A stretch of 64,000 nt of DNA, taken from contig CP070758.1 of the NCBI GenBank assembly GCA_020348925.1, positions 1,834,030 to 1,898,029 on the forward strand, given 5' to 3'. A program made the position numbers and the translations under genes. Of the stretch, positions 12,880 to 51,170 are shown piece by piece (the stretch's first letter is position 1; each line of letters starts with the position of its first letter). A model generated the notes under the pieces. That model saw only the letters and a program-made list of their open reading frames with translations. It searched no databases and was not told where the DNA came from. Source of the DNA: Gemmatimonadota bacterium (GTDB lineage Bacteria > JBHIER01 > G020348925).

Positions 12880-12880
12880 A

Positions 12881-19552: not shown

Positions 19553-19964
19553 GTCAACCAAGGATTCCAGCAGGCGCGGGGAGTCGTTGATTGAAGATGG
19601 TCTTGTTTCATTCTGAAAAATGAACGTTCTATAAGTGCGCAGCCGAACCATTTCCAACCTCGTATGATAGTCTTGTGATTGTTGGAAACTTTTGCAATAT
19701 CGTGGCAATAATCGTGCTCTGAGTTTTTGAGATCACTTTATTATTGCTCCTTGCACTTTTCATAAGGAGATATATATATTATCAAATCTTTGATCAAGAA
19801 GCTGTGGTGAAGTGTTCTCGCGTCAGGAGTGTAATCCTGTGCAATTTTCGGACAAGGTCAAAACGACTAAGAACTTATCAATAGCATATAGCTTTCAGCA
19901 TTTTACTCAGTTTCATGCCTTTGGGCCTCTATTGAATTCTGAGATTGAGAGGAGGAATCTATCC

Positions 19965-22187: not shown

Positions 22188-22266
22188 TTTAATTTTTTGT
22201 TCACTGACGGAAAGACTGTCGAATCACTTGAAGTACAATCCGCTTATTACGAAAAGGAACTCATGA

Positions 22267-23295: not shown

Positions 23296-23309
23296 ACCTG
23301 AAGACGCTT

Positions 23310-34600: not shown

Positions 34601-34951
34601 CCCGATCAGAAGCGCCCCGAGTTGGAGAAAGCTTTTGTTGCTCCCAGGACACCCCTGGAAAAGACAGTGGCTGGGATCTGGTCCGACATACTGGGATTGG
34701 AGAAAATTGGCGTCCACGATAATTTCTTCGAGCTGGGTGGACACTCCCTGCTGGCCACCCAGCTCGTTTCTCGCGTGCGCGATGTCTGTCAGGTCGAGCT
34801 GCCGCTACGGAGCATCTTTGAGGCGACGACCATAGCCGATCAGGCCCTGGTGGTTGAGAAACTTCTTATTACGTATGTTCGTGGATTATCCGATGAGGAA
34901 GTTATCGAACGCCTGGGTCAGCACCCATATTCGATGAATGAGAAACGATGA
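31634..34951 (+). CDS. NRPS module C-A-T
   Basis: LSFAQQRLWFL, HHIVSDAWS, YTSGSTGIPKG, NVYGPTE, GGHSLL. Confidence 0.95.
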   Translation: MMFDKDASEETEKLELLAFLLKEEGIESPQEHPLIRRGDRDRLPLSFAQQRLWFLDQWVPGSSFYNIPAAVHLTGPLDVTALEQSLNEIVRRHEVLRTTFSLVEGKPVQVIAKSMPLQVSMIDLREIPEESRETEIEHAITEEIQRPFDLSQGPLLRARLLRLAEKEHILSLTMHHIVSDAWSMGIFYRELSTLYRAFTTGMPSTLPELPIQYADFALWQREWLQGENLEAQLSYWRERLAVAPPSLELPTDRPRPPAQTYRGARQSLVLSKTLTEAIKVLSQREGVTLFMTLLAAFKILLHRYTGQDDIVLGGPIAGRSRPEIEGLIGFFVNTLVMHTNISGNPSFREVLGRVCEVCLGAYDHQDLPFEKLVEELRPERNLNQSPLFQVMFAYQNTPRQGLELSGLTVNPLEVDSGTAKFDVALSVVEEREGLKGTFEFNTDLFNRDTIARMLGHFQTLLEGIVTNPEEHISTLPLLTEAQQRQVLVEWNETSADFPNDKCINELFETQVEQIPEVVAIVFENQRLTYQQLNRESNRLAHYLQKLGVGPDVFVGICVERSLEMVVGILGILKAGGAYVPLDPAYPKERVSFMLKDTQAPILLTRENLVEELPDHEAHVICLDRDRETIGRESEENPGSRATADSLAYAIYTSGSTGIPKGVLVEHRGLCNVVEAFIQIHTLHQGNRLLHTVSFNFDAATLHMFMAFCSGATLCLTAGNLLLSGPSLIQTLCEQAITLLPIPASVLSALPFKKLPSLRTISVGAEVCPPEVVARWAPGRRFLNVYGPTEATIVATTAVCTGGDRRPPIGRPIANTQVYILDRHLQAVPIGVAGELHIGGVGLAGGYLNQPDVTGEKFIPNPFRDEAGARLYKTGDLGRYLPDGNIEFLGRMDHQVKIRGFRIELGEIEAVLGQHPAVRGVVVLAREDAPGDKRLVAYIVADQEHRPTIRELRDFLKQKFPDYMAPSVFVTLDSLPLTPNDKVDRRALPVPDQKRPELEKAFVAPRTPLEKTVAGIWSDILGLEKIGVHDNFFELGGHSLLATQLVSRVRDVCQVELPLRSIFEATTIADQALVVEKLLITYVRGLSDEEVIERLGQHPYSMNEKR

Positions 34952-37900
34952 AGAACATAGATAATCATATTGAAGGACAGCGCCTCGAGCTGTCACCGGC
35001 AAAGCGAGTTTTTCTCGAAAGGCTCATGCGGGGTGAAGGGAGGAGAGAAGACCCATCGAGCCTCATACCCAAACGGACGGAGCAGAGCCCCGCCCCCCTC
35101 TCCTTTGCTCAGCAGCGGCTGTGGTTCCTGGATCAACTGGAGCCTCATAATCCCGCGTATACTGTCCCTATTGCCATGCGTCTGAAAGGCCGGCTGAATG
35201 TGGCAGCCCTGGAGCAAAGTCTCAATGAAATTGTGAGGCGCCACGAAGTCTTGCGGACGACCTTCTCCATGGTGGCTGGACAACCGGTTCAGGTTATCGC
35301 AGCAAGTCTAAATCTACATGTAACGGTGGTGGACGTCAGGGAGTTTCCTGAAGCTGCACGAGAAACAGAAGCTGGAAAGATAATCGCTGAAGAGGTGCAG
35401 CGACGGTTCGATCTATCCCAGGATCCACTCGTACGAGTTCATCTGCTGCGTCTGGAAGAGGAGGTGCACATCCTGCTGATCATAATGCACCACATCGTCT
35501 CTGATGAGTGGTCGATGAGGATATTCTTTCAGGAGCTTTCTATACTCTATAAGGCTTTGGTTAGAGGGGAGCCGTGGTCACTTCCGGAGCTTCCGATTCA
35601 ATATGCTGACTTTGCGGTTTGGCAGCGGAAGTGGTTGCGGGGGGATTTCTTGGACACACAGCGTTCCTATTGGAGGGAGCACGTTGCTGGTATGCCGCGG
35701 GTGTTGGAGCTCCCCACCGATCGTCCACGACCAGTAGTACAGACGTATCGTGGTGGACATCACTCACTGGTGCTGTCCAGAAATGCGACGCATTTGCTGA
35801 AGAGATTGAGCCAGCAAGAAGGGGCCACGCTGTTCATGACGTTGCTCTCTGTCTTCAAGACATTGCTCTTCCACTACACGGGTCAGGAAGATATCTTTGT
35901 GGGAACTCCTGTAGCCAATCGCAGCCGGACCGAGATCGAGGGATTGATCGGATTTTTCACCAACACATTGGTCTTGCGTACCGATCTTTCCGGCAATCCC
36001 ACCTTTCGAGAATTGATGAGACGTGCACGCGAAGTATGTTTGGGAGCCTACACGCATCAGGATGTGCCTTTTGAGAAACTGGTGGAGGAGTTGAAGCCCG
36101 AACGGAATCTCAATTATTCTCCTCTGTTTCAGGTGATGTTTGTTTTCCAGGATGAGACTGCTTTTGTTCCGGAACTCCCGGGCGTGCGTGTCAGTATGAT
36201 GCAGGTTGACAGCGGGACGTCGAAGTTCGATCTGACGTTGTTCATGCAGGAGGAGGAGGGTGGGCTTCGGGCCACGGTGGAGTATTCTTCGGATCTGTTT
36301 GATGCAGCGACAATCCGAAGGATGTTGAGACATCTGGAGGTGTTGGTGGAGGGGATTGTGACTGATCCTGATCGGCGTCTTACAGAGTTGCCGTTGTTGA
36401 CGGAGGTTGAGCGGCATCGGTTGCTGGTGGAATGGAACAAGACCCAATCGGATTACCCGGCAGATGTATGCGTTCATCAGCTCTTTGAGGTACAGGCAGA
36501 GCAGAGGCCTGATGGGATTGCCGTGGTCTTTGAAGATCAGCACCTCACCTACCGGGAACTCAATGCACGGGCCAACCAACTGGCTCACTACCTCAAAGAG
36601 CGCGGCGTGGGACCCGACGTTCCAGTAGGCATTTTCGCGGGGCGTTCGTTGGACATAGTCATAGGTTTATTAGGTATCCTCAAGGCCGGTGGGGTGTATG
36701 TTCCCCTGGACCCATGCTATCCCAAAGATCGTCTGGCCTTTCAGTTACAGGATACTTGTGTACCGCATCTGTTGACTCAAAAGCGGCTGATGCCAGAGCT
36801 TCCCGAACATAATGTGAATGTAATCTGTTTGGACTCGCACTGGGACATCATTGCTCAAGAGGGTATAGATAATACTGTCAGCGGGGCCCAGCCCGAGAAT
36901 TTGATTTACATACTCTATACCTCAGGATCGACAGGACGACCCAAGGGTGTTGCCATCCCCCATGGTTCCATAGTCAACCTGATAACGTGGCAACTCCATC
37001 AGACTGACCTGCCCCAAGGTGCCAAGACGCTGCAGTACAATTCATTCAGCTTTGACGCCTGTTTCATGGATATCTTTATGAGTTGGTGCTCAGGCGACAC
37101 ATTGTTCATCGTGCCGGAACCCGTACGGCAGGACATCACTGGATTGGCGCGATTCATTGCAGATCATGGCATCGAACGACTCAATCTCCCCTTTATCGTA
37201 CTTGAGCATTTGGCTACCATGTGGGATGCTGGGGAGAAGCCGCCACAGTGCATGAGGGAGATCATCAGCACGGCTGAACAATTGCACGTAAGTCAGCCTC
37301 TCAGGAGACTATTCGCTCAATTACCCCATTGTCTCCTGTTCAATCACTACGGTCCCTCCGAGACTCACGTCGTCACCGCCTTCGCACTGACGGGACCACC
37401 GGGTAACTGGCCAGAATTTCCTGCCATAGGACGGCCCATAGCCAACACACGTACCTATATCTTGGATATAAGTTTTTGCCCTGTCCCGGTGGGGCTGCCC
37501 GGTGACCTGTACATTGGGGGTGTCAGCTTGGCTCGCGGCTATCTGGATCGGCCGGAATTGACGGCGGAGCGTTTTGTTCCGAATCCCTTCGGTGACGAGT
37601 CGGAGGCACGGATATATAAGACCGGAGACGTGGCCCGTTACTCACCGGATGGAAATATCGAGTACCTGGGCCGCATGGATCACCAGGTGAAACTCCGCGG
37701 TTTCCGCATCGAGTTGGGGGAGATCGAGGCCGTTTTGAACCAGCACTCTGGGGTGAAGGAGGCCGTGGTACTGGCCAGGGAGGGATGGGCTCAGGAGAAG
37801 CGCTTGGTCGCCTATGTTGTCCCGAATCAGACGGGAGCGCTTCTCAGCAGCGAACTGCGCGGTTTCCTGAAACAGAAGCTTCCGGAGTACATGGTGCCCT

Positions 37901-39522
37901 CGGTTTTTGTGACGCTGGAAGCCCTGCCGTTGACGTCGAGCGGCAAGGTGGACCGCGGGGCGCTTCCTGTACCTGGTCAGAGACGACCTGAGCTGGAAGT
38001 GACCTTTGCCCCTCCCAGGACGTCTGTTGAAGAAATGCTGAGGGGGATCTGGACCGAGGTCCTCGGTCTTGAGCAGGTCGGTATCCGCGACAACTTCTTT
38101 GAGCTGGGAGGACATTCTCTGCTGGCTGTGAAACTGGTGTCGAGGATGTCGCTGGCGCTGAATCGCGAAATATCGGTCAGGTTTCTCTTTCAACACCCCA
38201 CCATTGCCGACTGCAGCGAAGCGATAGAGAATCTTCACCAGGCTGGTGAATCCCCGCAGGCTCAGGAGTATAGTGGTGTCTCCTCCCTCCCTCACGGTGG
38301 ACCCTCTGAACTCTCCCTGTCACCCTTCCTGCAGATCGAGCACCGCCCACTCTTACCATTGTTTACAGAGGGGAAGATTCCTCCTGTTGATGCGGCGGCT
38401 CTGGGATATTTTCCCGACAGTCTTCTGAGGCGCACTGATGTGACCCGCGATGAAATAATTGATAGGTGGTGTGACGGCCACCCGTCCTTGAAAGTTCACA
38501 TCGAGACCTCTTTAGGCCGAATTGCCCTCATACTGCTGCCTCGATTTCATTCCGAGCTGTACAAAGATGAGGACGACCTCGTGCGGGTCATTCTCGAAGC
38601 GCTGGAACTGGCTGTTCGGACTGGGGCAAGCACTGTCTCTCTTTCAGGACTGATCCCTTCGGCCACGGACTACGGTCGCTCCATCGAGGCAGCACGCTCC
38701 AAGCGGGTGGATGTGCCGATGATTACCACCGGACACGCTACAACCGCCGCCACAGTCGTGTTGGCTGTAAAAAAGATTTTACATGAAGGCGGGCGGGACC
38801 TGGCCCGGGAGCGGGTTGGGTTCCTGGGTTTGGGATCCATCGGGCAGGCGACCCTTCGTCTGATGCTGAACTGTCTGCCCCATCCACTGGAGATCACACT
38901 GTGTGATGTCTACAGCAAGCTCGATTTCCTGGAAAGAATCCGGCGGGAGCTCATCGATGATTTGGGATTTCAAGGTCCCGTCCGGCTCAGTCAATCACGG
39001 CTGGACGTACCACCGGAGTTTGATGAGGCCAGCCTGATCGTCGGGGCCACCAATGTACCCGACATTCTGGATATCCGGCGCGTCAATCCCGGAACAATGA
39101 TGGTTGATGATTCCGGACCTCATTGTTTCGTTGTCAGGAATGCTATCAGACGTCTTCAGGAGCAGGAAGATATTCTCTTTACCGAAGGCGGAGTGCTCCG
39201 ATCGCCGCATCCCATCCGTCAGCTCAGATACGTACCGCGTTCGGAGGAAAAAATGATGGATCCTGCCCAGAGGGAAGCCCTTATGAATTTCAATCCCTTT
39301 CACATAACGGGTTGTGTTCTCTCCGGCCTCCTTTCCTCACGCTTTGAGGACCTCCCGCCGACGGTGGGACTCGTCGACGATCAATCATGCAATGCGCACT
39401 ACGATCGGCTCAGTCGATTAGGATTTCAAGGCGCCGACCTAACTTGTGAGAGCTACGTGCTTCCCGAAAAATCGATTCACAGCTTCCGGAACCGTTTCGG
39501 GGGAGTGGACCAGGATGAGTGA
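34948..39522 (+). CDS. NRPS module C-A-T plus a C-terminal NAD(P)-binding domain resembling acyl-ACP reductase
   Basis: HHIVSDEWS, NHYGPSETHVVT (Pro-family A5), GGHSLL; then ITTGHATT, GFLGLGSIG, VDDSGPH, TEGG, TGCVLSGLL. Confidence 0.92.
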   Translation: MKNIDNHIEGQRLELSPAKRVFLERLMRGEGRREDPSSLIPKRTEQSPAPLSFAQQRLWFLDQLEPHNPAYTVPIAMRLKGRLNVAALEQSLNEIVRRHEVLRTTFSMVAGQPVQVIAASLNLHVTVVDVREFPEAARETEAGKIIAEEVQRRFDLSQDPLVRVHLLRLEEEVHILLIIMHHIVSDEWSMRIFFQELSILYKALVRGEPWSLPELPIQYADFAVWQRKWLRGDFLDTQRSYWREHVAGMPRVLELPTDRPRPVVQTYRGGHHSLVLSRNATHLLKRLSQQEGATLFMTLLSVFKTLLFHYTGQEDIFVGTPVANRSRTEIEGLIGFFTNTLVLRTDLSGNPTFRELMRRAREVCLGAYTHQDVPFEKLVEELKPERNLNYSPLFQVMFVFQDETAFVPELPGVRVSMMQVDSGTSKFDLTLFMQEEEGGLRATVEYSSDLFDAATIRRMLRHLEVLVEGIVTDPDRRLTELPLLTEVERHRLLVEWNKTQSDYPADVCVHQLFEVQAEQRPDGIAVVFEDQHLTYRELNARANQLAHYLKERGVGPDVPVGIFAGRSLDIVIGLLGILKAGGVYVPLDPCYPKDRLAFQLQDTCVPHLLTQKRLMPELPEHNVNVICLDSHWDIIAQEGIDNTVSGAQPENLIYILYTSGSTGRPKGVAIPHGSIVNLITWQLHQTDLPQGAKTLQYNSFSFDACFMDIFMSWCSGDTLFIVPEPVRQDITGLARFIADHGIERLNLPFIVLEHLATMWDAGEKPPQCMREIISTAEQLHVSQPLRRLFAQLPHCLLFNHYGPSETHVVTAFALTGPPGNWPEFPAIGRPIANTRTYILDISFCPVPVGLPGDLYIGGVSLARGYLDRPELTAERFVPNPFGDESEARIYKTGDVARYSPDGNIEYLGRMDHQVKLRGFRIELGEIEAVLNQHSGVKEAVVLAREGWAQEKRLVAYVVPNQTGALLSSELRGFLKQKLPEYMVPSVFVTLEALPLTSSGKVDRGALPVPGQRRPELEVTFAPPRTSVEEMLRGIWTEVLGLEQVGIRDNFFELGGHSLLAVKLVSRMSLALNREISVRFLFQHPTIADCSEAIENLHQAGESPQAQEYSGVSSLPHGGPSELSLSPFLQIEHRPLLPLFTEGKIPPVDAAALGYFPDSLLRRTDVTRDEIIDRWCDGHPSLKVHIETSLGRIALILLPRFHSELYKDEDDLVRVILEALELAVRTGASTVSLSGLIPSATDYGRSIEAARSKRVDVPMITTGHATTAATVVLAVKKILHEGGRDLARERVGFLGLGSIGQATLRLMLNCLPHPLEITLCDVYSKLDFLERIRRELIDDLGFQGPVRLSQSRLDVPPEFDEASLIVGATNVPDILDIRRVNPGTMMVDDSGPHCFVVRNAIRRLQEQEDILFTEGGVLRSPHPIRQLRYVPRSEEKMMDPAQREALMNFNPFHITGCVLSGLLSSRFEDLPPTVGLVDDQSCNAHYDRLSRLGFQGADLTCESYVLPEKSIHSFRNRFGGVDQDE

Positions 39523-42500
39523 ACGATCACCCCTCTACCCCACGTCCTGTGCTCAGCAGCAACTGTGGTTTCAGGCCCAGTTGGATCCGGAGAGTCACGT
39601 TTCTAATATTGCCTCCGCGGTGCGCTTGCATGGTTCCCTCCGTGTACCGGCGTTGGAGCGGAGTCTCGATGAGATTGCTCGACGCCACAAAGCCTTGCGG
39701 ACGACTTTCCTGACCAGAGCGGGACAACTCAAACAGGTTGTGGCACAATCCTCAATACCGCGGTTACCGGTACACGACCTGACGGTGTTCCCTGAGAGTG
39801 AGCGGGAGGATGAAGCCAGACGACTGCTCACAGAGAAAGCGCGTCGCCCTTTTGATCTGGCCACAGGTCCACTTTTTTTGGCAGGCATACTCCGGCTGGG
39901 GGTGGATGATCATATCCTTTTTACAGTAATGCACCGAATCATCGCGGATAATTGGTCCTTGGGTATATTTTTTCAGGAATTCTTTATTCTTTACGAGGCT
40001 TACTCCACCGGAAAATCCTCGCCCCTTCCGGAGCTCACTACGCAGTATCACAAGTTTGCTCAGTGGCAATGTAAGTGGATGAAGAGCAAATCAGCCGAGG
40101 AACAGCTCTCATATTGGAAACAGCGACTCGCTCATGTTCCGTTCACGGTGAATCTCCCTACCGACGGCTCACGTCACGGCTCGCGACGAATCCACCAGGG
40201 TGCAACGCAGTCACTGATGCTGCCTGAATCACTGTCTCACTCCCTCAGAGCCCTGAGCCATCAGGAGGAGGTTACCTTACCCACTATTTTACTGGCCGCC
40301 TGGCACGTGCTGCTGTATCGCTACACGAATCAGGGTGAGATTGTCGTCGGATTTACCACTGAAGGCCGCAGGCGCTCGGGGATGGAGGAACCGATTGGAT
40401 TATGTAGCAATATCCTGGCCCTGCGAATGCCGCCAGTGCGAGACAATCCTGCTTTCAGGGAGCTGCTGAAGCGGATGCGCGGAGTGATCCTGGAAGCGTA
40501 TGCCAACCAGGATGTACCCTTTGAGAATGTGATGGAGGAACTGCAATCGCAAGGGGACTTGGACCGCACGCCTCAGTTTCAGGTCGCCTTCCAATTCGAT
40601 CATCGCCCTGATGTGGCTTCAAAGCCGCACGGCTTGGACGTGAAAGACTTCGAGTTTGAAAAAGGAATTTCAAGGCATGATGTAACCCTGAAGATTGTAG
40701 AGAAGGTGGAAGAACTCTCCTGCTCTTTCGAGTACAACACCGACCTGTTTGAGGCGACGACCATCGCCCGGATGGGATGGCATTTCAAGAGATTGTTGGA
40801 AGGCATTGTAGATCAGCCGGATGAGGTCATCTCGGATTTGCCGCTGTTGACGGAAGGCGAATGGCATCAACTCCTTGTGGAGTGGAATACGGTTCGAGTC
40901 GAGAACTTTAAGGAGGAATTTTATCATCGGAGTTTTGAGTTTCAAGCCGAACGATTGTCAGACGCGGTGGCGGTCGTGTTTGAGGGTGAGCACTTGACAT
41001 ATCAGGAGTTGAATGTGCGAGCAAACCAATTGGCGCACTATTTACAAGCTCTGGGTGTAGGACCTGACGTACTTGTAGGGATGTGTATGGAGCGTTCTCC
41101 GGAGTTGGTCGTTGGAGTGCTCGCAACTCTCAAGGCAGGCGGGGCTTGCGTGCCTCTGGATCCGACATTTCCAGAGGACTGGTTTGCTTTTGTCTTGGAA
41201 GACACGGATGTTCAGGTCGTATTAACGCAAGACCGTTTGCTCAAGAAGCTTGCCGGGCACACAGGTCATGTGATCTGTTTGGATTCGGCCCAGGAGAACT
41301 GGGATCGAGAAAGCACAGAAAATCCGGTTCGTGATATAACGAGCGAAAATTTATCATTTGTGTACTACACCTCCGGCTCAACAGGTATTCCCAAAGCCGT
41401 GATGCAGCCGTACCGCAAAGTTGACACAACCGAGTCACTTGTTTCATTTACAGAAGAGGATCGACATCTGTTCAAAGCATCCATCGGCTTTACTCCCTTC
41501 GGTGCTGAGATTCTCACGCCTTTGATGACGGGTGGAAAAATGATTATTGCTGAGCCGGGACGGAGTCAGGACAGCACCTATCTCGTTCCATTGATTACCA
41601 AGCATACGGTGACGTATATCAGTGTTGTGCCTGCGATGCTACGAATGCTTCTGGAGCAGGATGAAATTGAAACATGTCGTAGCCTGAAACATGTCCTTTC
41701 CTTCGGTGAACCATTGCCCCATGACCTCCGAGAGCGCTTTTTCACTCGGACGGCTGCGAACCTGTACGTCTTATACGGCACCACCGAAGCACCCAGCGCG
41801 ACCTTCAAGATGTGCCAGCGCGGGGATGATGCATCGAGTAGTGGCGGTTTCTCCATAGGTCGGCGCCTGTCCGGAAACCGGATCCATATTATGTCTCTCA
41901 TGGGCGGGATGCAACCGGTTCCCATTGGCGTGCCGGGAGAGCTCTGTTGCAGCGGTTTTAACCTGGCTCGAGGGTATCTCAACCGTCCAGACTTGACTGC
42001 GGAGAGGTTCGTTCCAGATCCCGTCGGTGATGAGCCGGGAGCGCGCCTATATAAAACCGGAGACTTGGCTCGCTACCTGCCTGATGGGAACATCGAGTTC
42101 CTCGGCCGTATCGATCACCAGGTGAAACTCCGCGGCCTCCGTATCGAGCTTGCAGAGATCGAGGCAATACTGAGGCAGCACGTGACTGTCTTCGAGGTCG
42201 CCGTCGTGATGAGGGAAGACGAACCCGGGAATAACCGACTTGCAGCCTACGTGGTTCCCAATCAAGGGTCTACAATTTCCATCAGCGAACTCCGAAGTTT
42301 CCTAAGGGTGAAGCTTCCCGAGTACATGGTGCCTTCCGCTTTTGTTGAGCTGGATGCACTGTCCCTGACACGCAACGGGAAAATTGATCGTCAGGCTCTG
42401 CCAGCACCCGACAGGGTCAGACCCGAACAGGGAAGAGCTTTCATTGCACCTCGGGATGCGCTGGAAAATCACCTGGTAAAGATATGGGAAAAGCTTCTGG

Positions 42501-43516
42501 GCATCAAACCCATCGGTGTCAGGGACAGCTTCTTCGATCTGGGCGGACATTCACTTCTCGCAGTGCGCTTGTTCGCACAGATCGAAAAGATGCTTGATAA
42601 AAAACTTTCCCTGGCAAATCTCCTCGAGGCACCGACGGTTGAGCAGCTCGCTGGCCTTCTTCGCCAGGAAGGCGAGCCAGCACACTGGTCTTCATTAGTG
42701 GCCATTCAATCCGAAGGCACCAAACTGCCCTTCTTCTGGGTACCTCCGGCCGCGGCTGATGTCATCAGCTTGGCAGATCTCGCCAGGCATCTGGGACCGG
42801 ATCGACCCTTCTATGGACTCCAACCTCTGGGATTGGAGGGGAATCAATCTCCCCATGCCCACGTTGAGGAGATGGCCGCCCATTATATAAAAGAAATACG
42901 CAACATTCAGTCTGAAGGTCCTTATCTTTTGGGAGGAATCTGTTTCGGAGGCATTGTGGCGTTCGAGATGGCTTGCCGGCTTCATGAGCAAAATGACTCT
43001 GTGGCTTTCCTTGCTCTCTTGGATTCCAGTCAGCCACCCCCCCTGATATCGCTGCGGGATTATGTTCCCCGTTTACTCCTCCACCATTTACCGAGGGGAC
43101 AATTGACCTACTGTCTCAAGAAAGACCTGAGAGAGAAGGGAACAAAGTGGAAATGGAAGCTGTCCCGGAGTCATGGAGGCCGCCGTTTCTACAGGGTGTG
43201 GAATGTTCATGAAACGGCACGGAGAGCATACGTACCCCGTCCTTATCCGGGTCGGATCACCCTCTTTGAGAGCCGCGAATTTCGCATTCGTTTTCCCGAT
43301 TACGAGGCCCGGTGGTCCGCGCTGACCGAGGAGGGTTTGGATTGTCACACCATAGCGTGCGATCATGGCGATTTCCTGCATGAACCCTATGTCCGGATCG
43401 TCGCCGAGAAATTGAAAAACTGCCTCGAGGGTGTACCCTCTCAGAACGATGCTGGGAGAAATAAAAAGACTGCGTTGTCAAGAGCCCCCATTATAAACAG
43501 GGAGTTGTTAGGTTGA
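39515..43516 (+). CDS. NRPS module C*-A*-T-TE with a degenerate C motif, non-canonical A domain and Cys-type TE
   Basis: MHRIIADNWS (no second His), YTSGSTGIPKA, GFTPFGAE, LYGTTE, GGHSLL; TE GGICFGG. Start at ATG 39515 after GGGAG. Confidence 0.92.
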   Translation: MSERSPLYPTSCAQQQLWFQAQLDPESHVSNIASAVRLHGSLRVPALERSLDEIARRHKALRTTFLTRAGQLKQVVAQSSIPRLPVHDLTVFPESEREDEARRLLTEKARRPFDLATGPLFLAGILRLGVDDHILFTVMHRIIADNWSLGIFFQEFFILYEAYSTGKSSPLPELTTQYHKFAQWQCKWMKSKSAEEQLSYWKQRLAHVPFTVNLPTDGSRHGSRRIHQGATQSLMLPESLSHSLRALSHQEEVTLPTILLAAWHVLLYRYTNQGEIVVGFTTEGRRRSGMEEPIGLCSNILALRMPPVRDNPAFRELLKRMRGVILEAYANQDVPFENVMEELQSQGDLDRTPQFQVAFQFDHRPDVASKPHGLDVKDFEFEKGISRHDVTLKIVEKVEELSCSFEYNTDLFEATTIARMGWHFKRLLEGIVDQPDEVISDLPLLTEGEWHQLLVEWNTVRVENFKEEFYHRSFEFQAERLSDAVAVVFEGEHLTYQELNVRANQLAHYLQALGVGPDVLVGMCMERSPELVVGVLATLKAGGACVPLDPTFPEDWFAFVLEDTDVQVVLTQDRLLKKLAGHTGHVICLDSAQENWDRESTENPVRDITSENLSFVYYTSGSTGIPKAVMQPYRKVDTTESLVSFTEEDRHLFKASIGFTPFGAEILTPLMTGGKMIIAEPGRSQDSTYLVPLITKHTVTYISVVPAMLRMLLEQDEIETCRSLKHVLSFGEPLPHDLRERFFTRTAANLYVLYGTTEAPSATFKMCQRGDDASSSGGFSIGRRLSGNRIHIMSLMGGMQPVPIGVPGELCCSGFNLARGYLNRPDLTAERFVPDPVGDEPGARLYKTGDLARYLPDGNIEFLGRIDHQVKLRGLRIELAEIEAILRQHVTVFEVAVVMREDEPGNNRLAAYVVPNQGSTISISELRSFLRVKLPEYMVPSAFVELDALSLTRNGKIDRQALPAPDRVRPEQGRAFIAPRDALENHLVKIWEKLLGIKPIGVRDSFFDLGGHSLLAVRLFAQIEKMLDKKLSLANLLEAPTVEQLAGLLRQEGEPAHWSSLVAIQSEGTKLPFFWVPPAAADVISLADLARHLGPDRPFYGLQPLGLEGNQSPHAHVEEMAAHYIKEIRNIQSEGPYLLGGICFGGIVAFEMACRLHEQNDSVAFLALLDSSQPPPLISLRDYVPRLLLHHLPRGQLTYCLKKDLREKGTKWKWKLSRSHGGRRFYRVWNVHETARRAYVPRPYPGRITLFESREFRIRFPDYEARWSALTEEGLDCHTIACDHGDFLHEPYVRIVAEKLKNCLEGVPSQNDAGRNKKTALSRAPIINRELLG

Positions 43517-45030
43517 AGAGAGATTCCGTTCGGCCCGAGAGTCGAGGTTCAGCGTTCACGCAACAGAACTATTCCCCTGGGGGTGCGATGATTGGGGGAA
43601 CGCTGGTACTCACGGGATCCCGGATGGTCTTTTTTGTGTGTGGTTACATTGTCCACGTTTTCCTGGCGAGATATTTACAGCCACAGTTGTTTGGCGTCTG
43701 GGGAGTCATTCTCGGAATCCTGACCGTCTATCAGATGATCGTAATGTCAGGACCTTCGAAGGCCATTTCAAAATTTACAGCGGAAAGAGCAGATCAAGCT
43801 CGATCGATTCAAAATCAGGGGTTGAAGATCCAGATCATTTTATCCGGCATACTGTGCGTATTCATGGGCATCGCAGCACACTGGATTGCGCGGCTACTCA
43901 AAGATTTGACACTGACTCCATATATTCGCGCCACAGTCTTTTTCTTTCCTGTCTATGCCTTGTATGCGGTCTATCTGGGTACGCTCAATGGGCTGCGTGC
44001 CTTTGATCGACAAGCACTGGTCATGACAGCTTACTCCTTGCTGCGAATGATAGGAATCGTGGCTCTCGTTCTGTTGGGCTACCGGGTGTACGGGGTACTG
44101 GGTGGCAGTTGGCTGGCCATGTTCGTAGCAATCTTCATCGCTCGTCGTTTCTGCACGTGTCCGGTAGCAGATCATACCTTTGAAGGGCAGCGAATTATTC
44201 GGTTCGCTCTTCCCGTGAGCTTCTTCGCCCTGGCCTTGGCCGCTTTTTCAAATCTCGACATTTTCCTTCTCAAAGCTCTCCTGGGAAGTAATGAGGATGT
44301 GGGGTTCTACACGGCCGCCGTCGTTCTTGTCAAAGTACCGTATCTGTTGCTCTTCGGGCTCAATACGACGCTGTTTCCGGTGGTGGCGCAATCCTTGTGG
44401 GACCCTACGTACTCCAAAGCGAAATTCTATATCAGCCGCTCACTGCGCTATGCTCTCCTCATCGTAACACCCACTGCGTTTGTAACAGCGGCCACTTCGA
44501 GAGAATTGATCCTCCTTATATACACATCACAATACATCTCCGCCTCGGAACCGCTCCGGATCCTCATTTTCGGGTATGTTTTTGCTTCGATCTTTATGAT
44601 CGCGTCAACAGTAATTATGGCCGTGGGGAAACCGAGGATCGCCATGGGTATCGTGTTCCTGATGGTTGGTTTGGACTTTGTACTCAATTATGCATTGATC
44701 CCCCAGTTCGGATTGACCGGTGCCGCGCTGGCGACATCTGCGGCCGCATTCATCGGCGTTTTCGGAGGACTGGCGTATATCTTTCGAAGATTCGGTCAAC
44801 TCTTGAATCCCATATCACTTGTAAAAATCACCGGTGTCTCAATTGGACTCTGTGTGCCTTGTGTTTTTTTCGATATGAGGGGCATGTGGTTATTGATATA
44901 TTACGCGGTTGCGATCGTTCTCTATATTGGTTTCCTGGCTCTTCTCAAGGAGCTCGGAGAAGAGGAATGGTCGATTTTCAAACGCGCCTTTGTTCCACAG
45001 ACAGTCCGGAAGCGCCACAACGGATCATGA
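43513..45030 (+). CDS. Polysaccharide flippase (Wzx-like, MOP/MATE superfamily)
   Basis: About 12-14 TM segments; LARYLQPQLFGVW, NLDIFLLKALLG, VGFYTAA, LIPQFGLTGAALATS. Start may be 43588. Confidence 0.88.
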   Translation: MKRDSVRPESRGSAFTQQNYSPGGAMIGGTLVLTGSRMVFFVCGYIVHVFLARYLQPQLFGVWGVILGILTVYQMIVMSGPSKAISKFTAERADQARSIQNQGLKIQIILSGILCVFMGIAAHWIARLLKDLTLTPYIRATVFFFPVYALYAVYLGTLNGLRAFDRQALVMTAYSLLRMIGIVALVLLGYRVYGVLGGSWLAMFVAIFIARRFCTCPVADHTFEGQRIIRFALPVSFFALALAAFSNLDIFLLKALLGSNEDVGFYTAAVVLVKVPYLLLFGLNTTLFPVVAQSLWDPTYSKAKFYISRSLRYALLIVTPTAFVTAATSRELILLIYTSQYISASEPLRILIFGYVFASIFMIASTVIMAVGKPRIAMGIVFLMVGLDFVLNYALIPQFGLTGAALATSAAAFIGVFGGLAYIFRRFGQLLNPISLVKITGVSIGLCVPCVFFDMRGMWLLIYYAVAIVLYIGFLALLKELGEEEWSIFKRAFVPQTVRKRHNGS

Positions 45031-45036
45031 TGACCT

Positions 45037-46227
45037 ATGCAAAAAACGACGAATGAGAATAACCGAGCATTGGACACATCTGAAATTGACTCTCTCATCA
45101 TAGTCACCAGCTCTTATGTCTATGTGCCTGAGGATGTTCTTATCAACTCAGGTGTGTTTGTCCGGGACTTTGCGCGGGCGCTTACGGAGCGTGGTGTACG
45201 AGTGACCGTTGTGACGCAGCACAGGAGCGCAGCCGTGCTGGTGGATCCAGGCATTGAGGTGATCGCATATCCATGGTCCGGAATGGATCGACAGCCGGTG
45301 GAATTGAGTTTCCACAGGTTGTCGGATTACGGTCACATCTGGTCACTGCTGCATGGCGGGATCAATGCGCTGCGCGGAATCTCGGTTTCGGATCAGAAGG
45401 TGCGCTGTCTGTGCATGTGGGCTGTGCCAGCCGGGTATATGGCCATGAAGGCCCTCCGTGGAACGGGCGTTCCGTACGACGTGTGGTGCCTGGGATCGGA
45501 CATTTGGCATTACGGAGGCAAGCGGTTTTCGCGGTGGCTCATAAAAAAAATCTTGCGAAACGCCCAGCATCTTTTTGCGGATGGCTATGTTTTACGAGAT
45601 GATGTGCAGAGCCTTTCTCGGCGAAACTGCACATTTTTAGCCAGCTCTCGAATGTTATCGGGAGAGACGGAGATTGTACCCCGTCTCGTACCAGGCAAAC
45701 CCAATCTGCTTTTCATCGGTCGATGGCATCCGAACAAAGGTGTCGATCTCCTTCCGGAGACGATGCGCTTCTTGAAAAATATGGGAGTGGACGCCCATCT
45801 TCATCTCTTCGGTGGCGGAACGCTTCAAGAAGAGTTGAAGACATTGATCTCAAAACATGGAGTGGAGAACGATATCACCCTCCATGGGTATGCGGATTCC
45901 GGCGTGGCTGTCGCCTATCTCAAAGCCTGTGATGTCTTAATTATTCCCTCACGTATCGAGAGTATCCCTATTATATTTTCTGACGCGGTCAAATGCAGAA
46001 TTCCGGTGGTCGCGACTGACGTCGGTGATTTGGGAATGTTGATTCGGGAGCATCAAATCGGTGAAGTCGTTCGGCCGAATTCGCCATTGATGCTGGCCGA
46101 GGGTGTTCAACTCGTGTTGAAGAAAGATCGATCCTTTTTTTCTCAGCAAGCCCTGAGAGTAGCGCGGCGTTTCGATGTGAGGGCTGCTGCGATGACATAT
46201 CTTCAAATTATAAAAACAGGAGCATAA
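45037..46227 (+). CDS. Glycosyltransferase, GT4/GT-B family
   Basis: LLFIGRWHPNKGVDLL, DVLIIPSRIESIPIIFSDA (E-x7-D), PVVATDVG. Confidence 0.9.
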   Translation: MQKTTNENNRALDTSEIDSLIIVTSSYVYVPEDVLINSGVFVRDFARALTERGVRVTVVTQHRSAAVLVDPGIEVIAYPWSGMDRQPVELSFHRLSDYGHIWSLLHGGINALRGISVSDQKVRCLCMWAVPAGYMAMKALRGTGVPYDVWCLGSDIWHYGGKRFSRWLIKKILRNAQHLFADGYVLRDDVQSLSRRNCTFLASSRMLSGETEIVPRLVPGKPNLLFIGRWHPNKGVDLLPETMRFLKNMGVDAHLHLFGGGTLQEELKTLISKHGVENDITLHGYADSGVAVAYLKACDVLIIPSRIESIPIIFSDAVKCRIPVVATDVGDLGMLIREHQIGEVVRPNSPLMLAEGVQLVLKKDRSFFSQQALRVARRFDVRAAAMTYLQIIKTGA

Positions 46228-46328
46228 CCATCCGAAAAACTGTCTCCCGGATGGTTACACTGATCAACGCGGAGAGAGACGGAACGTCAAAAGAGTGGAA
46301 AAATAGCCAGAACAAGGAAGTACTGTGT

Positions 46329-47477
46329 ATGGAAAAATACATCATTTTTGGTAGTCCTCACATTGAGGAGCAAGACATTCGAGAAGTTGTTGACTCGCTG
46401 CATTCGGGGTGGCTCTCCACCGGACCGAAAGTAGCGAAGTTCGAGAAAATGTTTGCGGACTATATCGGTGCGTCCCATGCCTGCGCTTTGGGTTCATGCA
46501 CCGCCGGTCTGCATCTGGCCCTGCTCGTCGTGGGAGTGAAGCCTGGAGATGAAATCATAACATCCCCGATGACCTTTGCTGCGACGGCCAATGTCATCGA
46601 ACACCTCGGTGCACAGCCTGTATTTATTGATATCGAGCGGGATTCTATGAACATTGATGTGAGTCAGATATCATCAAAGGTCACCAAAAGAACGAAGGCC
46701 ATTCTCCCCGTTCACTTTGCCGGAAGGCCGTGCGACATGGAAGCCGTAATCGAATTGGCGAAGAAGCATGATCTGCACGTGATCGAAGATGCTGCCCATT
46801 GTACAGAGGGAGAGTACCGAGGGCGAAAAATAGGGACAATCGGGGATCTGACCGCATTCAGTTTTTATGCTACGAAGAGCCTGAGCACCGGTGAGGGTGG
46901 CATGGTGACGACCCACAATGAACACTGGGCCGAAAAGATTAAAGTCTTAAGCTCCCATGGTCTGAGCAGAGATGCCTGGAAACGGTATTCTTCTGAAGGG
47001 AATTCGCATTACCAGGTCGTCGTACCGGGATATCCGTATAACATGATGGACCTTCAGGCGGCCATTGGAATACACCAACTGCTGCGACTCTCGAAATCTC
47101 TGCAGCGGCGTGATGAAATCTGGCGGATGTACGATGAAGCATTCGAGGATCTTCCGGTTGAAACGCCTGCCTCGGCTGAAACCGGGACAGTCCACGCCAG
47201 ACATCTCTATACGGTGCTGGTCGATTCCGAAAATGCCGGCAGATCGCGCGACGGCGTGCGTCGAATATTATACGAGCAAAAAGTCGGCAGCGGGGTCCAT
47301 TTCATATCACTGCACATGCATCCGTACTACGCCAACAAATACGGATATGCTCCCGAGGATTTCCCGAATGCGATGTACGTTTCGGAGCGCACAATGTCAC
47401 TGCCCTTGTCGTCGAAGCTGAGCGATGACGACGTTGCCCGGGTCATCGTGGCGGTCAAGAAGGCTCTGAGAAAATGA
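46329..47477 (+). CDS. DegT/DnrJ/EryC1/StrS family PLP-dependent (sugar) aminotransferase
   Basis: SGWLSTGPKV, SCTAGLHLAL, TFAATAN, VIEDAAH, SFYATKSLSTGEGG (PLP Lys). Confidence 0.93.
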   Translation: MEKYIIFGSPHIEEQDIREVVDSLHSGWLSTGPKVAKFEKMFADYIGASHACALGSCTAGLHLALLVVGVKPGDEIITSPMTFAATANVIEHLGAQPVFIDIERDSMNIDVSQISSKVTKRTKAILPVHFAGRPCDMEAVIELAKKHDLHVIEDAAHCTEGEYRGRKIGTIGDLTAFSFYATKSLSTGEGGMVTTHNEHWAEKIKVLSSHGLSRDAWKRYSSEGNSHYQVVVPGYPYNMMDLQAAIGIHQLLRLSKSLQRRDEIWRMYDEAFEDLPVETPASAETGTVHARHLYTVLVDSENAGRSRDGVRRILYEQKVGSGVHFISLHMHPYYANKYGYAPEDFPNAMYVSERTMSLPLSSKLSDDDVARVIVAVKKALRK

Positions 47478-48250
47478 TGAGTAACACAGAAGGCACCACG
47501 ACACCATCGCTAGTTACGTCGAACTCCGCTCCTGAGAGGCTCACAATAAATTCCAGCCAAGTGCATGTATGGTGTGCCGATCTGAATATACATTCAGATC
47601 GATTGCACAAGTATTATCACACACTTTCTGCCGACGAACGGGATCGAAGCGCGCGGTTCAAATTTCAAAAAGATCGTGACGGTTATATTGCCGCGCACGG
47701 TATACTTCGAGCCGTTTTAAGTCGATACGTGAATACAAAACCGTGTCAACTTCGTTTTTATGCGAACAATTTTGGCAAACCGTCACTGGACACATCGACC
47801 GGACCAGGGATGCCCCGTTTCAATATGGCGCACTCGAGTGGATTGGCCCTCTTCTGCATCTCCCGGGATCGTGAAGTAGGCATTGACCTCGAAACTATTC
47901 GTCCCCTTGATGAGATAAAGGAGATTGCCGCACAATCGTTCTCCCCGAAGGAGGTCGAGACGCTTCTGGCGCTCCCCGATAAGGAACAGGTTGAAGCCTT
48001 TTATACATGCTGGACCCGAAAGGAGGCGTATGTCAAGGCCAGAGGGATGGGATTGTCTCTGCCTCTCGATCGGTTTGACGTCTCTCTTTCGCCGGACGAA
48101 CCGGCCAGACTGTTGGCGTCCAGAGAAGATCCGCAGGAAACATTTCGATGGACCCTGATGGGATTCAACCCTCGTCCAAACTTTGTGGCAGCCCTTGCTG
48201 TAGCGGGCCATGGCTGGCAAGTGAAATTCTGGCACTGGTCTGATGAGTAG
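47474..48250 (+). CDS. Sfp-type 4'-phosphopantetheinyl transferase
   Basis: FGKP, FNMAHS, VGIDLE, WTRKEAYVKARG. Confidence 0.93.
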   Translation: MMSNTEGTTTPSLVTSNSAPERLTINSSQVHVWCADLNIHSDRLHKYYHTLSADERDRSARFKFQKDRDGYIAAHGILRAVLSRYVNTKPCQLRFYANNFGKPSLDTSTGPGMPRFNMAHSSGLALFCISRDREVGIDLETIRPLDEIKEIAAQSFSPKEVETLLALPDKEQVEAFYTCWTRKEAYVKARGMGLSLPLDRFDVSLSPDEPARLLASREDPQETFRWTLMGFNPRPNFVAALAVAGHGWQVKFWHWSDE

Positions 48251-48311
48251 AAGAGGTATGATGCATATCCTTTAGGTGAGGATGTGTAAGAATTCGGATC
48301 GAAGAAAATCC

Positions 48312-48340
48312 TTGACATCACCTCAAGAAGTCGCTATTCT
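48312..48340 (+). promoter_or_regulatory. Putative sigma-70 promoter
   Basis: TTGACA (48312-48317), 17 nt spacer, TATTCT (48335-48340). Confidence 0.5.
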
Positions 48341-49007
48341 TCGACTGTTGTAAACACATGAGAACCCGGATTGAAACTGAAGACATTCCTTTATTGAAAA
48401 ATGTCACGAACCCATCTTTCTCGAAGGAGAGACCGTTTTGCCTTGTGTAAGGAATAATAATCCTTACCTTACAAAATTCCGCAATGTCTCGTGTGAAAAA
48501 TAGCATAATCTTACAGACTGGTGAAAATCCCCGATCGCAAAGGATATATATTCTGCGTGGGAGATGGGAAAGGACACGAGTCCCAGCCAAAAGGTCACAG
48601 CCTATCACAATCCGAAGAGATGATCGCAGGGTTAAGAGTGGAAGCGTATTGAAGAGTAAGACATGATAAATATCCCGATGTAACTTTCTCCCCGCATACG
48701 GTACTCCGCGATCAAGACGGAAAGTAAAGAGAGTTGGGAACTATGAAGGGTTTTGATTTTTGGATTCCTCCCCTCAAGTGGGGAAATGACATTGTGGAAT
48801 TGAGAGGTCATTGTGTCAACACAATTCTTGATCAACGCATTCGGAATTTCTGAGTATAGTGAGACTATTTATTTCTTTGAAATCATGCAGTTCGGTTAAA
48901 GTGGGAGGCAAAAACGAAGTTTCGCAACCGGTCTCCCAGAACTCGGATTTGGAATTGAGGTGAAATCGGAACACACTGTAACACTTTAAAAACAGGAGGA
49001 GTGGAAC

Positions 49008-51170
49008 ATGGTACGCACAATCCTTTTTTCTGCTTTGGTGTGTATGATCCTGGCTGGGCTCGCTTCAGCACAGATCCCGCAAACCATGAGCTATCAGGGT
49101 ATGCTCAAAGATGATGCCGGCAATCCTGTGGCGGATGGTACAGAGACCATGACTTTCAAGCTCTACGATGCGGAGGAGGAAGGCACAGCCCTCTGGCAAG
49201 AAATCCGGGAGGTCGAGATAACGGATGGTCTCTTTCATGTGATTCTTGGTGAAGAAAATCCCTTGAGCCTGCCCTTTGACAAGCCCTATTGGCTGGGCAT
49301 AACAGTCGGAACGGAAGAGGAACTCGCGCCCCGTTACGCTCTGACTTCATCCCCCTATAGTTTAAATGCAGTGTCGACCATTGTCGAACCGGAGGCTGGC
49401 CAGAGTCTCGCTATTCGTAATGAAGAGGGTGAGCAGACACATATTCTGAGCCAGGATGGAAATGTGGTTCACAAGGGAAGAGGAACATTCGAAGGGGGAC
49501 TGGAGGTGATAATGGGAGACACCACAGAAATATCCCCCTCAGTCAAGCCTGAACGTAAAGAAAAAATTGACTCAGATACTGCAATAACTGTTCTCATTAA
49601 TGAAGGGGCGGGGGTATATGCTTCGAATAATGATCCTACTCTTCCTGCAATATTTGGTTATAATATTTCAGAAACAGGAACTGCAGTTGGCATTAAAGGT
49701 TTGACATCCCGCGGGACAGGTGTTTTGGGTTCTTCTGATTACGGTACCGGTGTAAAGGCTGAAGGCGACATTGGCTTACTCGCCCGTGGCACTGGATATG
49801 CTGCTCGTTTTGATGGTGATGTGTCTCTAGACTACTCAGGCAAATTGAGAATAGATAACGTAACGAATGATCCGCAGGCGGAAAAGATCCTCGTCTGGTC
49901 AGATGATAAGTTTGTGAGGTACCGAGCTCTGCCCTCAGATACTGGGGATGGCCACGAGTGCGGCTGGGATTTTGACGAGGAAAGTGGTATTATATCCACC
50001 GATCATGAGGTCATTTTAAAAAATGAACAGGGAGAGGTCACCGCCCATTTCAATACCGATGTCGATGAACACCTCATTAGAGGACGTTTGGAAGTAGATG
50101 ATTGGCTCATCATCGAAAATGATGAAAGTAAAGGTGGCATCACCATGGACCCAGAGGAATTTATACTTTTCGATTCGGAGGGAGTGGGTGCGTATGTTTT
50201 TAACGAAGATTCATCCGACCACTTCAAGCCCGCGTACTATTACGAGGACGTCATTTTAAAGGGACAGGACGGCAAAGGCATCAAACTGGTCAATGACAAT
50301 GATGAAACCATCGCCGGATTCGGCAGAAAGGACCTGGATACAGGACAAATACTTGCAGTCTATGGTACAGCGGAAACGGAAAACGATCTGGCGGGAAGAT
50401 TTGACGGTGATGTGAAAGTGAACGGTGAAATCTACGCCAGCAGTTTGCATATTGTCACCGAGCAGGGTGATACACTTACGGATTTCAATAGAGATGGAAC
50501 GTCAACCCACAGAGGTCTGGAGAAGTTTGAGGAAGGTCTTATAGTGCCTATTAAGGAAGCTGACAAAGCGATTGTGCTCTATCCTGACTTAGGTATTGCG
50601 ATTATGGGCTTCCCTGGTGGGGAGTTTTACTTCCATGCCGATCCCGAGGGAAATGCCATAGTCAAGGAACATCTGTTTGTCAAGAATTGTACGGTGTCCG
50701 ACGTTCTCCAAGTTCAGGGTACCCTCAGCAAACCTGCCGGTTCATTCAAAATCGACCATCCGTTGGATCCTGAAGGTAAGTTTCTGTATCATTCATTTGT
50801 AGAGAGTCCGGACATGATGAACATATACAATGGCAATGTGGTTCTCGATGAAGCCGGTCAAGCCTGGGTGGAGCTGCCGCAATGGTTTGATGCCCTAAAC
50901 AGGGATTTCCGCTACCAGCTTGCTCCTATTGGAGCACCAGGACCAAACCTCTATATCTCAGAAGAAATTCATAATAACCGCTTCAAAATTGCAGGTGGAA
51001 GCCCAGGGATGAAAGTCTCATGGCAGGTGACGGGAATTCGTCAGGATGCCTACGCAGAAGCCAACCGTATTCAGGTCGAAGAGGACAAACCCCCGGAGCA
51101 GAGAGGCACCTACCTCCACCCGGAGTGTTTTGGCAAGTCCGAGTCGTATCGTCTGAGTTCTCAAAAATGA
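49008..51170 (+). CDS. Secreted acidic beta-rich protein with internal repeats and a conserved C-terminal 'FKIDHPLDP' domain (fibre/adhesin-like)
   Basis: GGAGGAG RBS, signal peptide, AQIPQTMSYQGML N-domain; C-terminal GSFKIDHPLDP...LYHSFVESPDMMNIYNG...YQL...VSWQVTG. Confidence 0.78.
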   Translation: MVRTILFSALVCMILAGLASAQIPQTMSYQGMLKDDAGNPVADGTETMTFKLYDAEEEGTALWQEIREVEITDGLFHVILGEENPLSLPFDKPYWLGITVGTEEELAPRYALTSSPYSLNAVSTIVEPEAGQSLAIRNEEGEQTHILSQDGNVVHKGRGTFEGGLEVIMGDTTEISPSVKPERKEKIDSDTAITVLINEGAGVYASNNDPTLPAIFGYNISETGTAVGIKGLTSRGTGVLGSSDYGTGVKAEGDIGLLARGTGYAARFDGDVSLDYSGKLRIDNVTNDPQAEKILVWSDDKFVRYRALPSDTGDGHECGWDFDEESGIISTDHEVILKNEQGEVTAHFNTDVDEHLIRGRLEVDDWLIIENDESKGGITMDPEEFILFDSEGVGAYVFNEDSSDHFKPAYYYEDVILKGQDGKGIKLVNDNDETIAGFGRKDLDTGQILAVYGTAETENDLAGRFDGDVKVNGEIYASSLHIVTEQGDTLTDFNRDGTSTHRGLEKFEEGLIVPIKEADKAIVLYPDLGIAIMGFPGGEFYFHADPEGNAIVKEHLFVKNCTVSDVLQVQGTLSKPAGSFKIDHPLDPEGKFLYHSFVESPDMMNIYNGNVVLDEAGQAWVELPQWFDALNRDFRYQLAPIGAPGPNLYISEEIHNNRFKIAGGSPGMKVSWQVTGIRQDAYAEANRIQVEEDKPPEQRGTYLHPECFGKSESYRLSSQK

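Follow-up and report, generated by a model that had tools for sequence, protein, structure and literature searches.

Does a set of sugar genes that lies at the end of a gene cluster for non-ribosomal peptide synthetases (NRPSs) belong to the peptide pathway, or does it only share its transcript? This question is raised by a 64,000-nucleotide stretch of the closed 5.04-Mb genome of a Gemmatimonadota bacterium (G000:C1:1834030-1898029), below called the window. Here, genes for a PST-type flippase, a GT4-family glycosyltransferase and a DegT-family aminotransferase lie between the last NRPS gene and a gene for a 4'-phosphopantetheinyl transferase (PPTase). The reading that we favour, and hold with about even confidence, is that the three genes form a cassette for amino-sugar glycosylation and translocation that serves the NRPS product. 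The genes concerned are listed below with their coordinates in the window; C, A, T and TE denote condensation, adenylation, thiolation and thioesterase domains, respectively.

39515..43516, + strand, last NRPS gene, C-A-T-TE (Pfam), with Cys in the TE nucleophile motif (GICFG)
43513..45030 (from TTG) or 43588..45030 (from ATG), + strand, PST/Wzx-like flippase of the MOP superfamily (PF01943, PF13440)
45037..46227, + strand, GT4-family glycosyltransferase (PF00534, PF13579)
46251..47477, + strand, DegT/DnrJ/EryC1-family pyridoxal phosphate (PLP) aminotransferase, ArnB/PseC-like (PF01041)
47474..48250, + strand, Sfp/HetI-type PPTase (PF01648, PF22624)
46221..46261, + strand, inverted repeat over the GT4 stop codon and the DegT start codon, with a 10-bp perfect stem and a 13-nt loop

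The order of the genes on the + strand (NRPS C-A-T-TE, flippase, GT4, DegT, PPTase) and their junctions were read directly from the sequence. The flippase stop codon (TGA, 45028-45030) and the GT4 ATG at 45037 are 6 nt apart, 23 nt separate the GT4 stop codon (TAA, 46225-46227) from the DegT ATG at 46251, and the DegT stop codon (47475-47477) is overlapped by the PPTase ATG at 47474 (ATGA). The 6-nt gap and the latter overlap are as described in an earlier interpretation of this DNA (the sequence-only reading), which had also claimed that the TTG start codon of the flippase overlaps the NRPS stop codon. This last claim stands in part. The NRPS stop codon (TGA, 43514-43516) does overlap a TTG in the flippase frame (43513-43515), forming TTGA at 43513-43516, but translation may start elsewhere. 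Reading from the TTG, the first 25 residues lack conservation; the Met that P0122 and P0123, the two relatives with an N-terminus present, have in common is matched in the alignment by an in-frame ATG at 43588; and the public gene call for the flippase is 480 aa long, consistent with this ATG. The flippase gene therefore possibly starts 71 nt past the NRPS stop codon. With either start, the genes are on the same strand with no gap suggestive of a separate unit, the spacing being -4 or +71, 6, 23 and -4 nt. A scan of positions 39000-49500 for promoters and terminators gave no excess over shuffled sequences (8 against a shuffle mean of 8.9, and 8 against a shuffle mean of 10.2).

The gene order is not an artefact of one assembler, because two other contigs cover the locus. 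One, of 7052 nt, comes from a separate assembly of short reads (run X1, possibly the sample that yielded the genome) and covers 42079-49130 with 17 differences; the other, of 151 nt and from another study (run X4), bridges 43490-43640 with 0 differences. DNA matching the window was seen only in sediment and mangrove metagenome runs.

In the inverted repeat at the GT4-DegT junction, one arm contains the stop codon of GT4 and the other the start codon of DegT; the terminator scan reported the repeat as terminator-like on the minus strand. The corresponding RNA (46216-46266, 51 nt) has a folding energy of -15.4 kcal/mol (z -3.04); within an 81-nt context the minimum-energy fold pairs otherwise (z -2.44). 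The repeat could couple or gate the translation of DegT.

The position of the cassette with respect to the NRPS genes was further analyzed by tblastn of window proteins against the whole genome. All 10 of the 10 NRPS-type matches above 130 bits lie within the window, and no second genomic copy was found of the PPTase gene (at E < 1e-6), the MbtH-like gene or the X domain, the latter being the C-terminal domain of one of the NRPSs. The window contains the NRPS gene complement of the whole genome, at a single NRPS locus. With the NRPS genes confined to the window and a PPTase for which tblastn gave no paralog, the cassette is placed inside the NRPS cluster. Flanked by the last NRPS gene and the only detectable Sfp-type PPTase gene, and joined to both by tight same-strand junctions, the sugar genes are, by position, within the apparent operon, in agreement with the sequence-only reading.

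If the cassette serves the NRPS product, the NRPS operon would end with these four genes. DegT would convert an NDP-keto-sugar, supplied by enzymes whose genes are at other places in the genome, into an NDP-amino-sugar, which the soluble GT4 enzyme would use to glycosylate an acceptor on the inner side of the membrane. This acceptor would most likely be the NRPS product itself or its membrane-bound form. The PST-type flippase would then move the glycoconjugate across the inner membrane, and the PPTase would activate the carrier domains of all the NRPSs. The end product would be an amino-sugar-bearing peptide destined for the envelope or the medium. We infer the chemical link between cassette and peptide, and likewise the identity of the sugar and of the acceptor, from the position in the operon alone.

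The flippase scores above the Pfam cut-offs of PF01943 (71.7 against 28.2) and PF13440 (69.6 against 23), and about 13 separate hydrophobic segments, where the family has about 12-14 membrane-spanning ones, were counted in a crude Kyte-Doolittle scan, which is not a proper topology prediction. It could also have been a small-molecule MATE exporter, but a canonical MATE pump was rejected: PF01554 matches residues 236-393 only, with 46.1 bits, and the TIGR00797 score of 41.1 is under the cut-off (147.4). The 72 and 70 bits for PF01943 and PF13440, set against a half-length match of 46 bits to PF01554 and a TIGR00797 score below its cut-off, favour the Wzx type that had been proposed for this protein. 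The scores for the NCBIfam models SpoVB (61.5 against 372.3), MurJ (26.9 against 235.55), O-glycosylation Wzx (32.2 against 720) and HfsF (15.6 against 700) are all below the cut-offs. Proteins of this kind are rare, with 35 at E <= 0.001 among 8000 candidates. Three relatives, P0122-P0124, are 70-80% identical and lie on contigs 1-4 kb long, and identity drops to 32% for the one after them; a search for close relatives in species genomes gave 30 pattern matches, of which 0 were confirmed.

For the GT4 protein, PF00534 (96.1 against 26.4) and PF13579 (35.2 against 29.7) are over their cut-offs, whereas the matches to NCBIfam equivalogs are all far too low to reach theirs, so that no specific enzyme can be named. 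No hydrophobic segment was detected in the same crude Kyte-Doolittle scan. Identity to its relatives lies between 50% and 80%; P0157-P0162 are at 66-80%, and four of them (P0157, P0159, P0160 and P0161) are on contigs of 5-12 kb. A comparison with a plasmid collection gave 10 records, all less than 60% identical and covering at most 50% of the query, and in the ESM Atlas only generic family names were obtained for the flippase and the GT4 protein. The PPTase scores above the cut-offs of PF01648 (68.9 against 25) and PF22624 (27.8 against 27) and below that of the HetI equivalog NF042922 (209.6 against 370).

DegT matches PF01041 with 431 bits over profile positions 2-359 of 360. Its best solved match is ArnB (PDB 1mdo, E 8.5e-87, full length), and its FSFYATK motif (K209) is aligned to FSFHAIK of ArnB, so that the lysine motif is kept; we take this lysine to be the PLP-binding one. 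The protein falls short of the equivalogs for ArnB (NF008658, 379.5 against 631) and PseC (TIGR03588, 368.1 against 423.5). The contexts in which its relatives are found support the earlier assignment as a sugar aminotransferase. The best relative in species genomes (58% identity, L015) lies among GT2 genes, a GT4 gene, a dehydratase fragment and a methyltransferase gene, and a 53% relative (L072) is in line with genes for a nucleotidyltransferase and a 4,6-dehydratase.

The enzymes supplying the keto-sugar would be encoded at a distance. As the sequence-only reading had stated, an initiating transferase, Wzy and an NDP-sugar dehydratase are missing from the window: none of the 39 open reading frames (ORFs) scanned there matches these families in Pfam, and none encodes a keto-sugar-making enzyme co-located with DegT. 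Within about 270 kb there is only one dehydratase-family match, which is weak (34 bits) and lies about 32 kb upstream. Elsewhere in the genome, far from the window, a dehydratase 48% identical to that of L072 is encoded at 3138937-3139938 and a nucleotidyltransferase 56% identical to that of L072 at 1059009-1059701. The genome has only two full-length DegT genes. A second sugar locus (L116, C1:3252766-3264091) contains genes for a DegT protein (37% identical to that of the window), a GT2 and a GT4 (32%) enzyme, a GFO/IDH/MocA oxidoreductase, LPG_synthase_TM, a YfhO-like protein, an RmlD-like reductase, a UbiA prenyltransferase and a DUF362 protein.

An alternative explanation is that the flippase, GT4 and DegT genes are an independent module for an envelope glycolipid or glycan that is merely co-transcribed, the peptide remaining unglycosylated. 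We consider this somewhat unlikely, though it has points in its favour. A scan of metagenome contigs with alignment of GT4 relatives gave 79 loci, none above 51% identity, which were examined by tblastn and with a flippase profile; 19 of them have at least 4 kb on both sides and many are short. Of the 79 loci, 31 have a DegT relative with 43% identity or more, as do 16 of the 19 well-flanked ones (43-53% in the latter), the numbers for a PST flippase being 4 and 2. In one locus (L068), DegT (51%) directly precedes GT4 (42%). In the two closest GT4 loci (L019 and L036, 50-51%), a 39% flippase relative is directly upstream of GT4, in the order of the window, and DegT is lacking. A flippase-GT4 fusion in these two loci, where a long ORF spans both, was rejected, since the tblastn matches are in different frames. 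Their flippase-GT4 pairs (8499-11143 in L019, 6849-9493 in L036) lie among unrelated genes (AraC regulator, Ser/Thr kinase, MscS-FHA) and look like a self-contained two-gene unit.

The usual company of GT4 and DegT in the 19 well-flanked loci consists of methyltransferases (15 and 13 loci), GT2 enzymes (14), a nucleotidyltransferase together with a 4,6-dehydratase (7) and LPG_synthase_TM (6). We also observed a recurrent module in sediment metagenomes (L026, L044, L068, L072 and others of L019-L097), in which GT4 is flanked by class-I methyltransferases, with GT2 and DegT nearby; we know of no name for it. The GT4-DegT and flippase-GT4 arrangements are recurring pairs of ordinary glycan biology; their union, like its place in an NRPS operon, was seen at this locus only. 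We count the recurrence of both pairs also in favour of our own reading, along with the sugar contexts of the DegT relatives and the distant dehydratase and nucleotidyltransferase genes.

The occurrence of the flippase-GT4 pair alone among unrelated genes, and that of the GT4-DegT pair in ordinary glycan loci, argue for an independent module. The same holds for the more distant flippase homologs, a 31% relative in another genome (G023) and a 25% paralog in the genome of the window, both of which are encoded among GT2 and GT-C type enzymes, and for the base composition of the cassette, which is nearer to the genome average than that of the NRPS genes. On the other side, the overlaps and short gaps place the cassette in one apparent transcription unit, of which the NRPSs need the last gene. 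Moreover, a second DegT-GT2-GT4 locus, equipped with membrane parts of its own, is already present at about 3.25 Mb. On contig C155 of the only other genome of the same family (G001, 87% complete, 670 contigs), GT4 (35%) and DegT (39%) relatives lie near each other, and nothing in G001 matches the cassette more closely; the last NRPS and the PPTase have no match in this one incomplete genome.

Several results weigh against a role of the cassette in tailoring the NRPS product. None of the 79 GT4 loci, and hence none of the 19 well-flanked ones, contains a match to an NRPS, PPTase, MbtH or X domain, nor do flippase, GT4 and DegT occur together in any of them. The four loci with DegT relatives that were analyzed lack NRPS, PPTase, MbtH and TAD matches (TAD, the terminal amidation domain, is treated below). 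The expectation that the sugar genes would co-occur with NRPS genes elsewhere has so far not been borne out, as 0 of 79 GT4, 0 of 4 DegT and 0 of 5 TAD-relative loci combine them. The window has none of the methyltransferase, GT2, nucleotidyltransferase and dehydratase genes that usually accompany GT4 and DegT, nor LPG_synthase_TM. A joint arrival of cassette and NRPS genes is not indicated by composition: the guanine-cytosine content is 50-52% for the cassette, 49.5% for the genome and 53-57% for the NRPS genes, and 43% of random 4-kb pieces of the genome match the tetranucleotide use of the NRPS block as well as the cassette does. In addition, GT4 is not known as the usual family for natural-product tailoring. 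A lipid-loading starter C domain was considered and rejected, the best match of the first C domain being the elongation C domain of McyB (1e-127); because this domain looks elongation-type, nothing points to a lipid anchor.

The remaining alternatives concern the way in which the peptide is released, and require a closer look at the NRPS genes. There are four NRPS gene sets in the window, all on the + strand. The sets, and the parts of set 4 that bear on release, are as follows.

2346-11707, + strand, NRPS set 1, A-T / C-A-T / C-A-T-TE (Pfam)
13561-19552, + strand, NRPS set 2, A-T / C-A-T-TE (Pfam)
24846-27467, + strand, NRPS set 3, A-T-TE (Pfam)
28374-43516, + strand, NRPS set 4, C-A-T / C-A-T / C-A-T-X / C-A-T-TE (Pfam), preceded by an MbtH-like gene
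34948..39522, + strand, NRPS C-A-T with a C-terminal TAD-like domain (Pfam Condensation, AMP-binding and PP-binding)
38224..39522, + strand, TAD-like domain, a putative terminal amidation domain homolog (profile and PDB matches)

In all four TE domains of the window (ORFs 7697-11707, 15431-19552, 24846-27467 and 39515-43516), Cys occupies the place where the nucleophile Ser is expected (GACMG, GACMG, GMCFG and GICFG, respectively). The best solved TE match, 4zxh (AB3403), has Cys at the same aligned position.

The domain that the sequence-only reading had called similar to acyl-ACP reductase (AAR) forms the last 432 residues of the third NRPS in set 4, a protein of 1524 residues, and follows a PP-binding domain (residues 1031-1092). 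It matches the N-terminal part of PigE weakly (NF053554, E 1.8e-8) and PDB chains 9e4s and 9e4x with E values of about 1e-140 (8.6e-141 for 9e4s); we assume that these structures are those from the TAD work of Rankin et al. As far as the available part of that preprint describes it, the TAD of CarI, VatR and HcaD is a putative terminal amidation domain with an acyl-ACP reductase-like structure and an invariant cysteine, found in pathways that give amides, not aldehydes (bioRxiv 10.1101/2024.10.28.620694). It is proposed that the substrate is held as a Cys thioester and attacked by a nitrogen nucleophile, the source of which is given there as unknown, with no consistently co-occurring partner within ten genes (bioRxiv 10.1101/2024.10.28.620694). 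Like these TADs, the domain in the window is AAR-like, has about 400 residues and follows a carrier domain as the last part of an NRPS protein. Unlike most described cases, a further C-A-T-TE gene follows in the operon. The ORF of this last NRPS opens at GTG 39446, and the likelier start is the in-frame ATG at 39515, which overlaps the preceding stop codon (39520-39522). The TAD-like domain is possibly not pathway-terminal, because this C-A-T-TE gene follows with overlapping stop and start.

Relatives of the TAD-like domain number 443 proteins at E <= 0.001 among 8000 candidates; among the matches listed, most are NRPSs that end in the domain. It is present in 3 of 401 genomes sampled around G000, with G000 included; in another phylum, 11 of 251 genomes have it. 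In the 5 TAD loci that were fetched, no DegT, GT4, flippase or PPTase relative was found within about 10 kb of the TAD. In one of these other TAD contexts (L112, 10728-12413), an NAD synthase gene directly follows the TAD-ending NRPS gene, and FecCD-type iron-siderophore ABC genes are downstream; according to the preprint, some TAD clusters contain NAD synthase (Rankin et al., bioRxiv 10.1101/2024.10.28.620694).

The sequence-only reading had proposed, as one option, that DegT aminates the aldehyde released by the AAR-like domain; PigE does the like within one protein. The match to the N-terminal region of PigE is in line with this idea, as are the report that the AAR-like N-terminal part of PigE reduces a thioester ahead of its own transaminase (PMC8341465) and the mention of an aldehyde route among several schemes in the TAD preprint (bioRxiv 10.1101/2024.10.28.620694). 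However, what PigE and TamH share with the window is this AAR-like thioester reductase part; their transaminase is fused and belongs to class III (for PigE, PMC8341465), whereas the one studied here is of the DegT family and is encoded three genes away. The TAD structures, from pathways that yield amides, are also a much closer match to the domain than PigE is, and the DegT relatives at 48-58% identity are in sugar loci. Since the domain is a TAD homolog and the five TAD loci have no DegT nearby, aldehyde amination is disfavoured, and we regard it as very improbable.

The main proposal of the sequence-only reading was an amide link between NRPS-made units and an amino sugar. In this scheme, the Cys-type TEs or the TAD-like domain would release the peptide onto the amine of the amino sugar made by DegT, and the PST protein would flip the resulting peptide-decorated glycolipid or glycan. 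The Cys in the nucleophile motif of all four TEs speaks for it, together with the presence of an amino-sugar-making gene and a flippase gene in the same operon. The bond formed would, however, be pure inference, and the aligned Cys of 4zxh shows the feature in another setting; to our knowledge, no sugar is involved in the 4zxh operon, which we count against the proposal. Neither an initiating transferase nor a lipid-loading domain is present in the window. The TAD scheme, in which a nitrogen nucleophile attacks a Cys thioester, would accommodate such a release, although the available part of the preprint names no consistent partner within ten genes (bioRxiv 10.1101/2024.10.28.620694). Further support comes from lincosamides, for which NRPS-like parts are described as coupling an amino acid to an amino sugar by an amide bond (PMC4351081). 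Taken together, we consider this form of release unlikely. We likewise give little credence to its more specific version, in which a GT4-built amino-sugar lipid would offer the amine that accepts the peptides released by the Cys TEs or the TAD-like domain, and the PST flippase would then expose the conjugate at the surface.

Some other features of the window do not bear directly on the cassette. Genes for a TonB-dependent receptor, an NMT1-type binding protein, and an ABC ATPase and permease lie between NRPS sets (19812-24853), which suggests re-uptake of at least one product, siderophore- or metallophore-like. The region between two NRPS sets at 12121-13564 encodes a 4Fe-4S dicluster-motif protein of 252 aa and has an ORF for 227 aa that matches no family. 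The MbtH-like ORF (27620-28207) encodes 195 aa, far longer than the 53-position MbtH profile, with the MbtH match at residues 2-54 and a weak CBF_beta-like match at residues 113-194. Downstream of the PPTase gene, a 758-nt gap is followed by unrelated genes of lower guanine-cytosine content. The first gene past the cluster (49008-51170) is a 720-aa ORF without a Pfam match; its N-terminus weakly matches the Bdellovibrio mosaic adhesive trimer model (E 1.2e-5, below cut-off). In the window, searches for Rfam families and for tRNAs both gave 0 matches.

In Wzx/Wzy-dependent loci for O-antigen or exopolysaccharide, PST flippase, GT4 and DegT genes likewise lie side by side, and relatives of each of the three are found there. 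The window differs in that it lacks an initiating phosphoglycosyl transferase, Wzy, a chain-length regulator, a dehydratase and a second glycosyltransferase, and in that its sugar genes are embedded in an NRPS operon. In the Arn pathway, which modifies lipid A with 4-amino-arabinose, an amino sugar on a lipid carrier is flipped across the membrane, a concept common to both systems, and ArnB is the best solved match of the DegT protein. However, no ArnA, ArnC (GT2), ArnT (GT-C) or ArnE/F types are present in the window, which has GT4 and a PST flippase instead.

Glycosyltransferases and sugar aminotransferases are well known in NRPS clusters. Those for mycobacterial glycopeptidolipids, cyanobacterial hassallidins and glycopeptide antibiotics combine NRPS genes with genes for glycosyltransferases, sugar-modifying enzymes and a transporter, and the known clusters for glycosylated non-ribosomal peptides use other glycosyltransferase and transporter families. 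The cyanobacterial desmamides are also glycosylated non-ribosomal peptides, according to the part of the report available (PMC9315949). In a full-text literature search, no description of a PST-type flippase within an NRPS cluster was found; in a paper on Collimonas, the flippase is in a separate lipopolysaccharide locus, not in the NRPS cluster. What would be new here, as far as this search goes, is the PST-type flippase in an NRPS operon, the individual parts being ordinary.

If the cassette is independent of the peptide, the locus would present an ordinary glycan module in an odd place. If release onto the amine of a sugar lipid did take place, it would give a ribosome-independent, Wzx-dependent envelope peptide-glycolipid in a rarely sampled diderm lineage, and would name a nitrogen nucleophile for the TAD family. 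If, as we favour, the cassette serves the NRPS product, an amino-sugar-tailored peptide would be moved by a polysaccharide-type flippase, a combination that the literature search did not find described. The Cys-type TEs and the TAD-like domain, two poorly understood release chemistries, would then come together in one testable cluster of an uncultured lineage.

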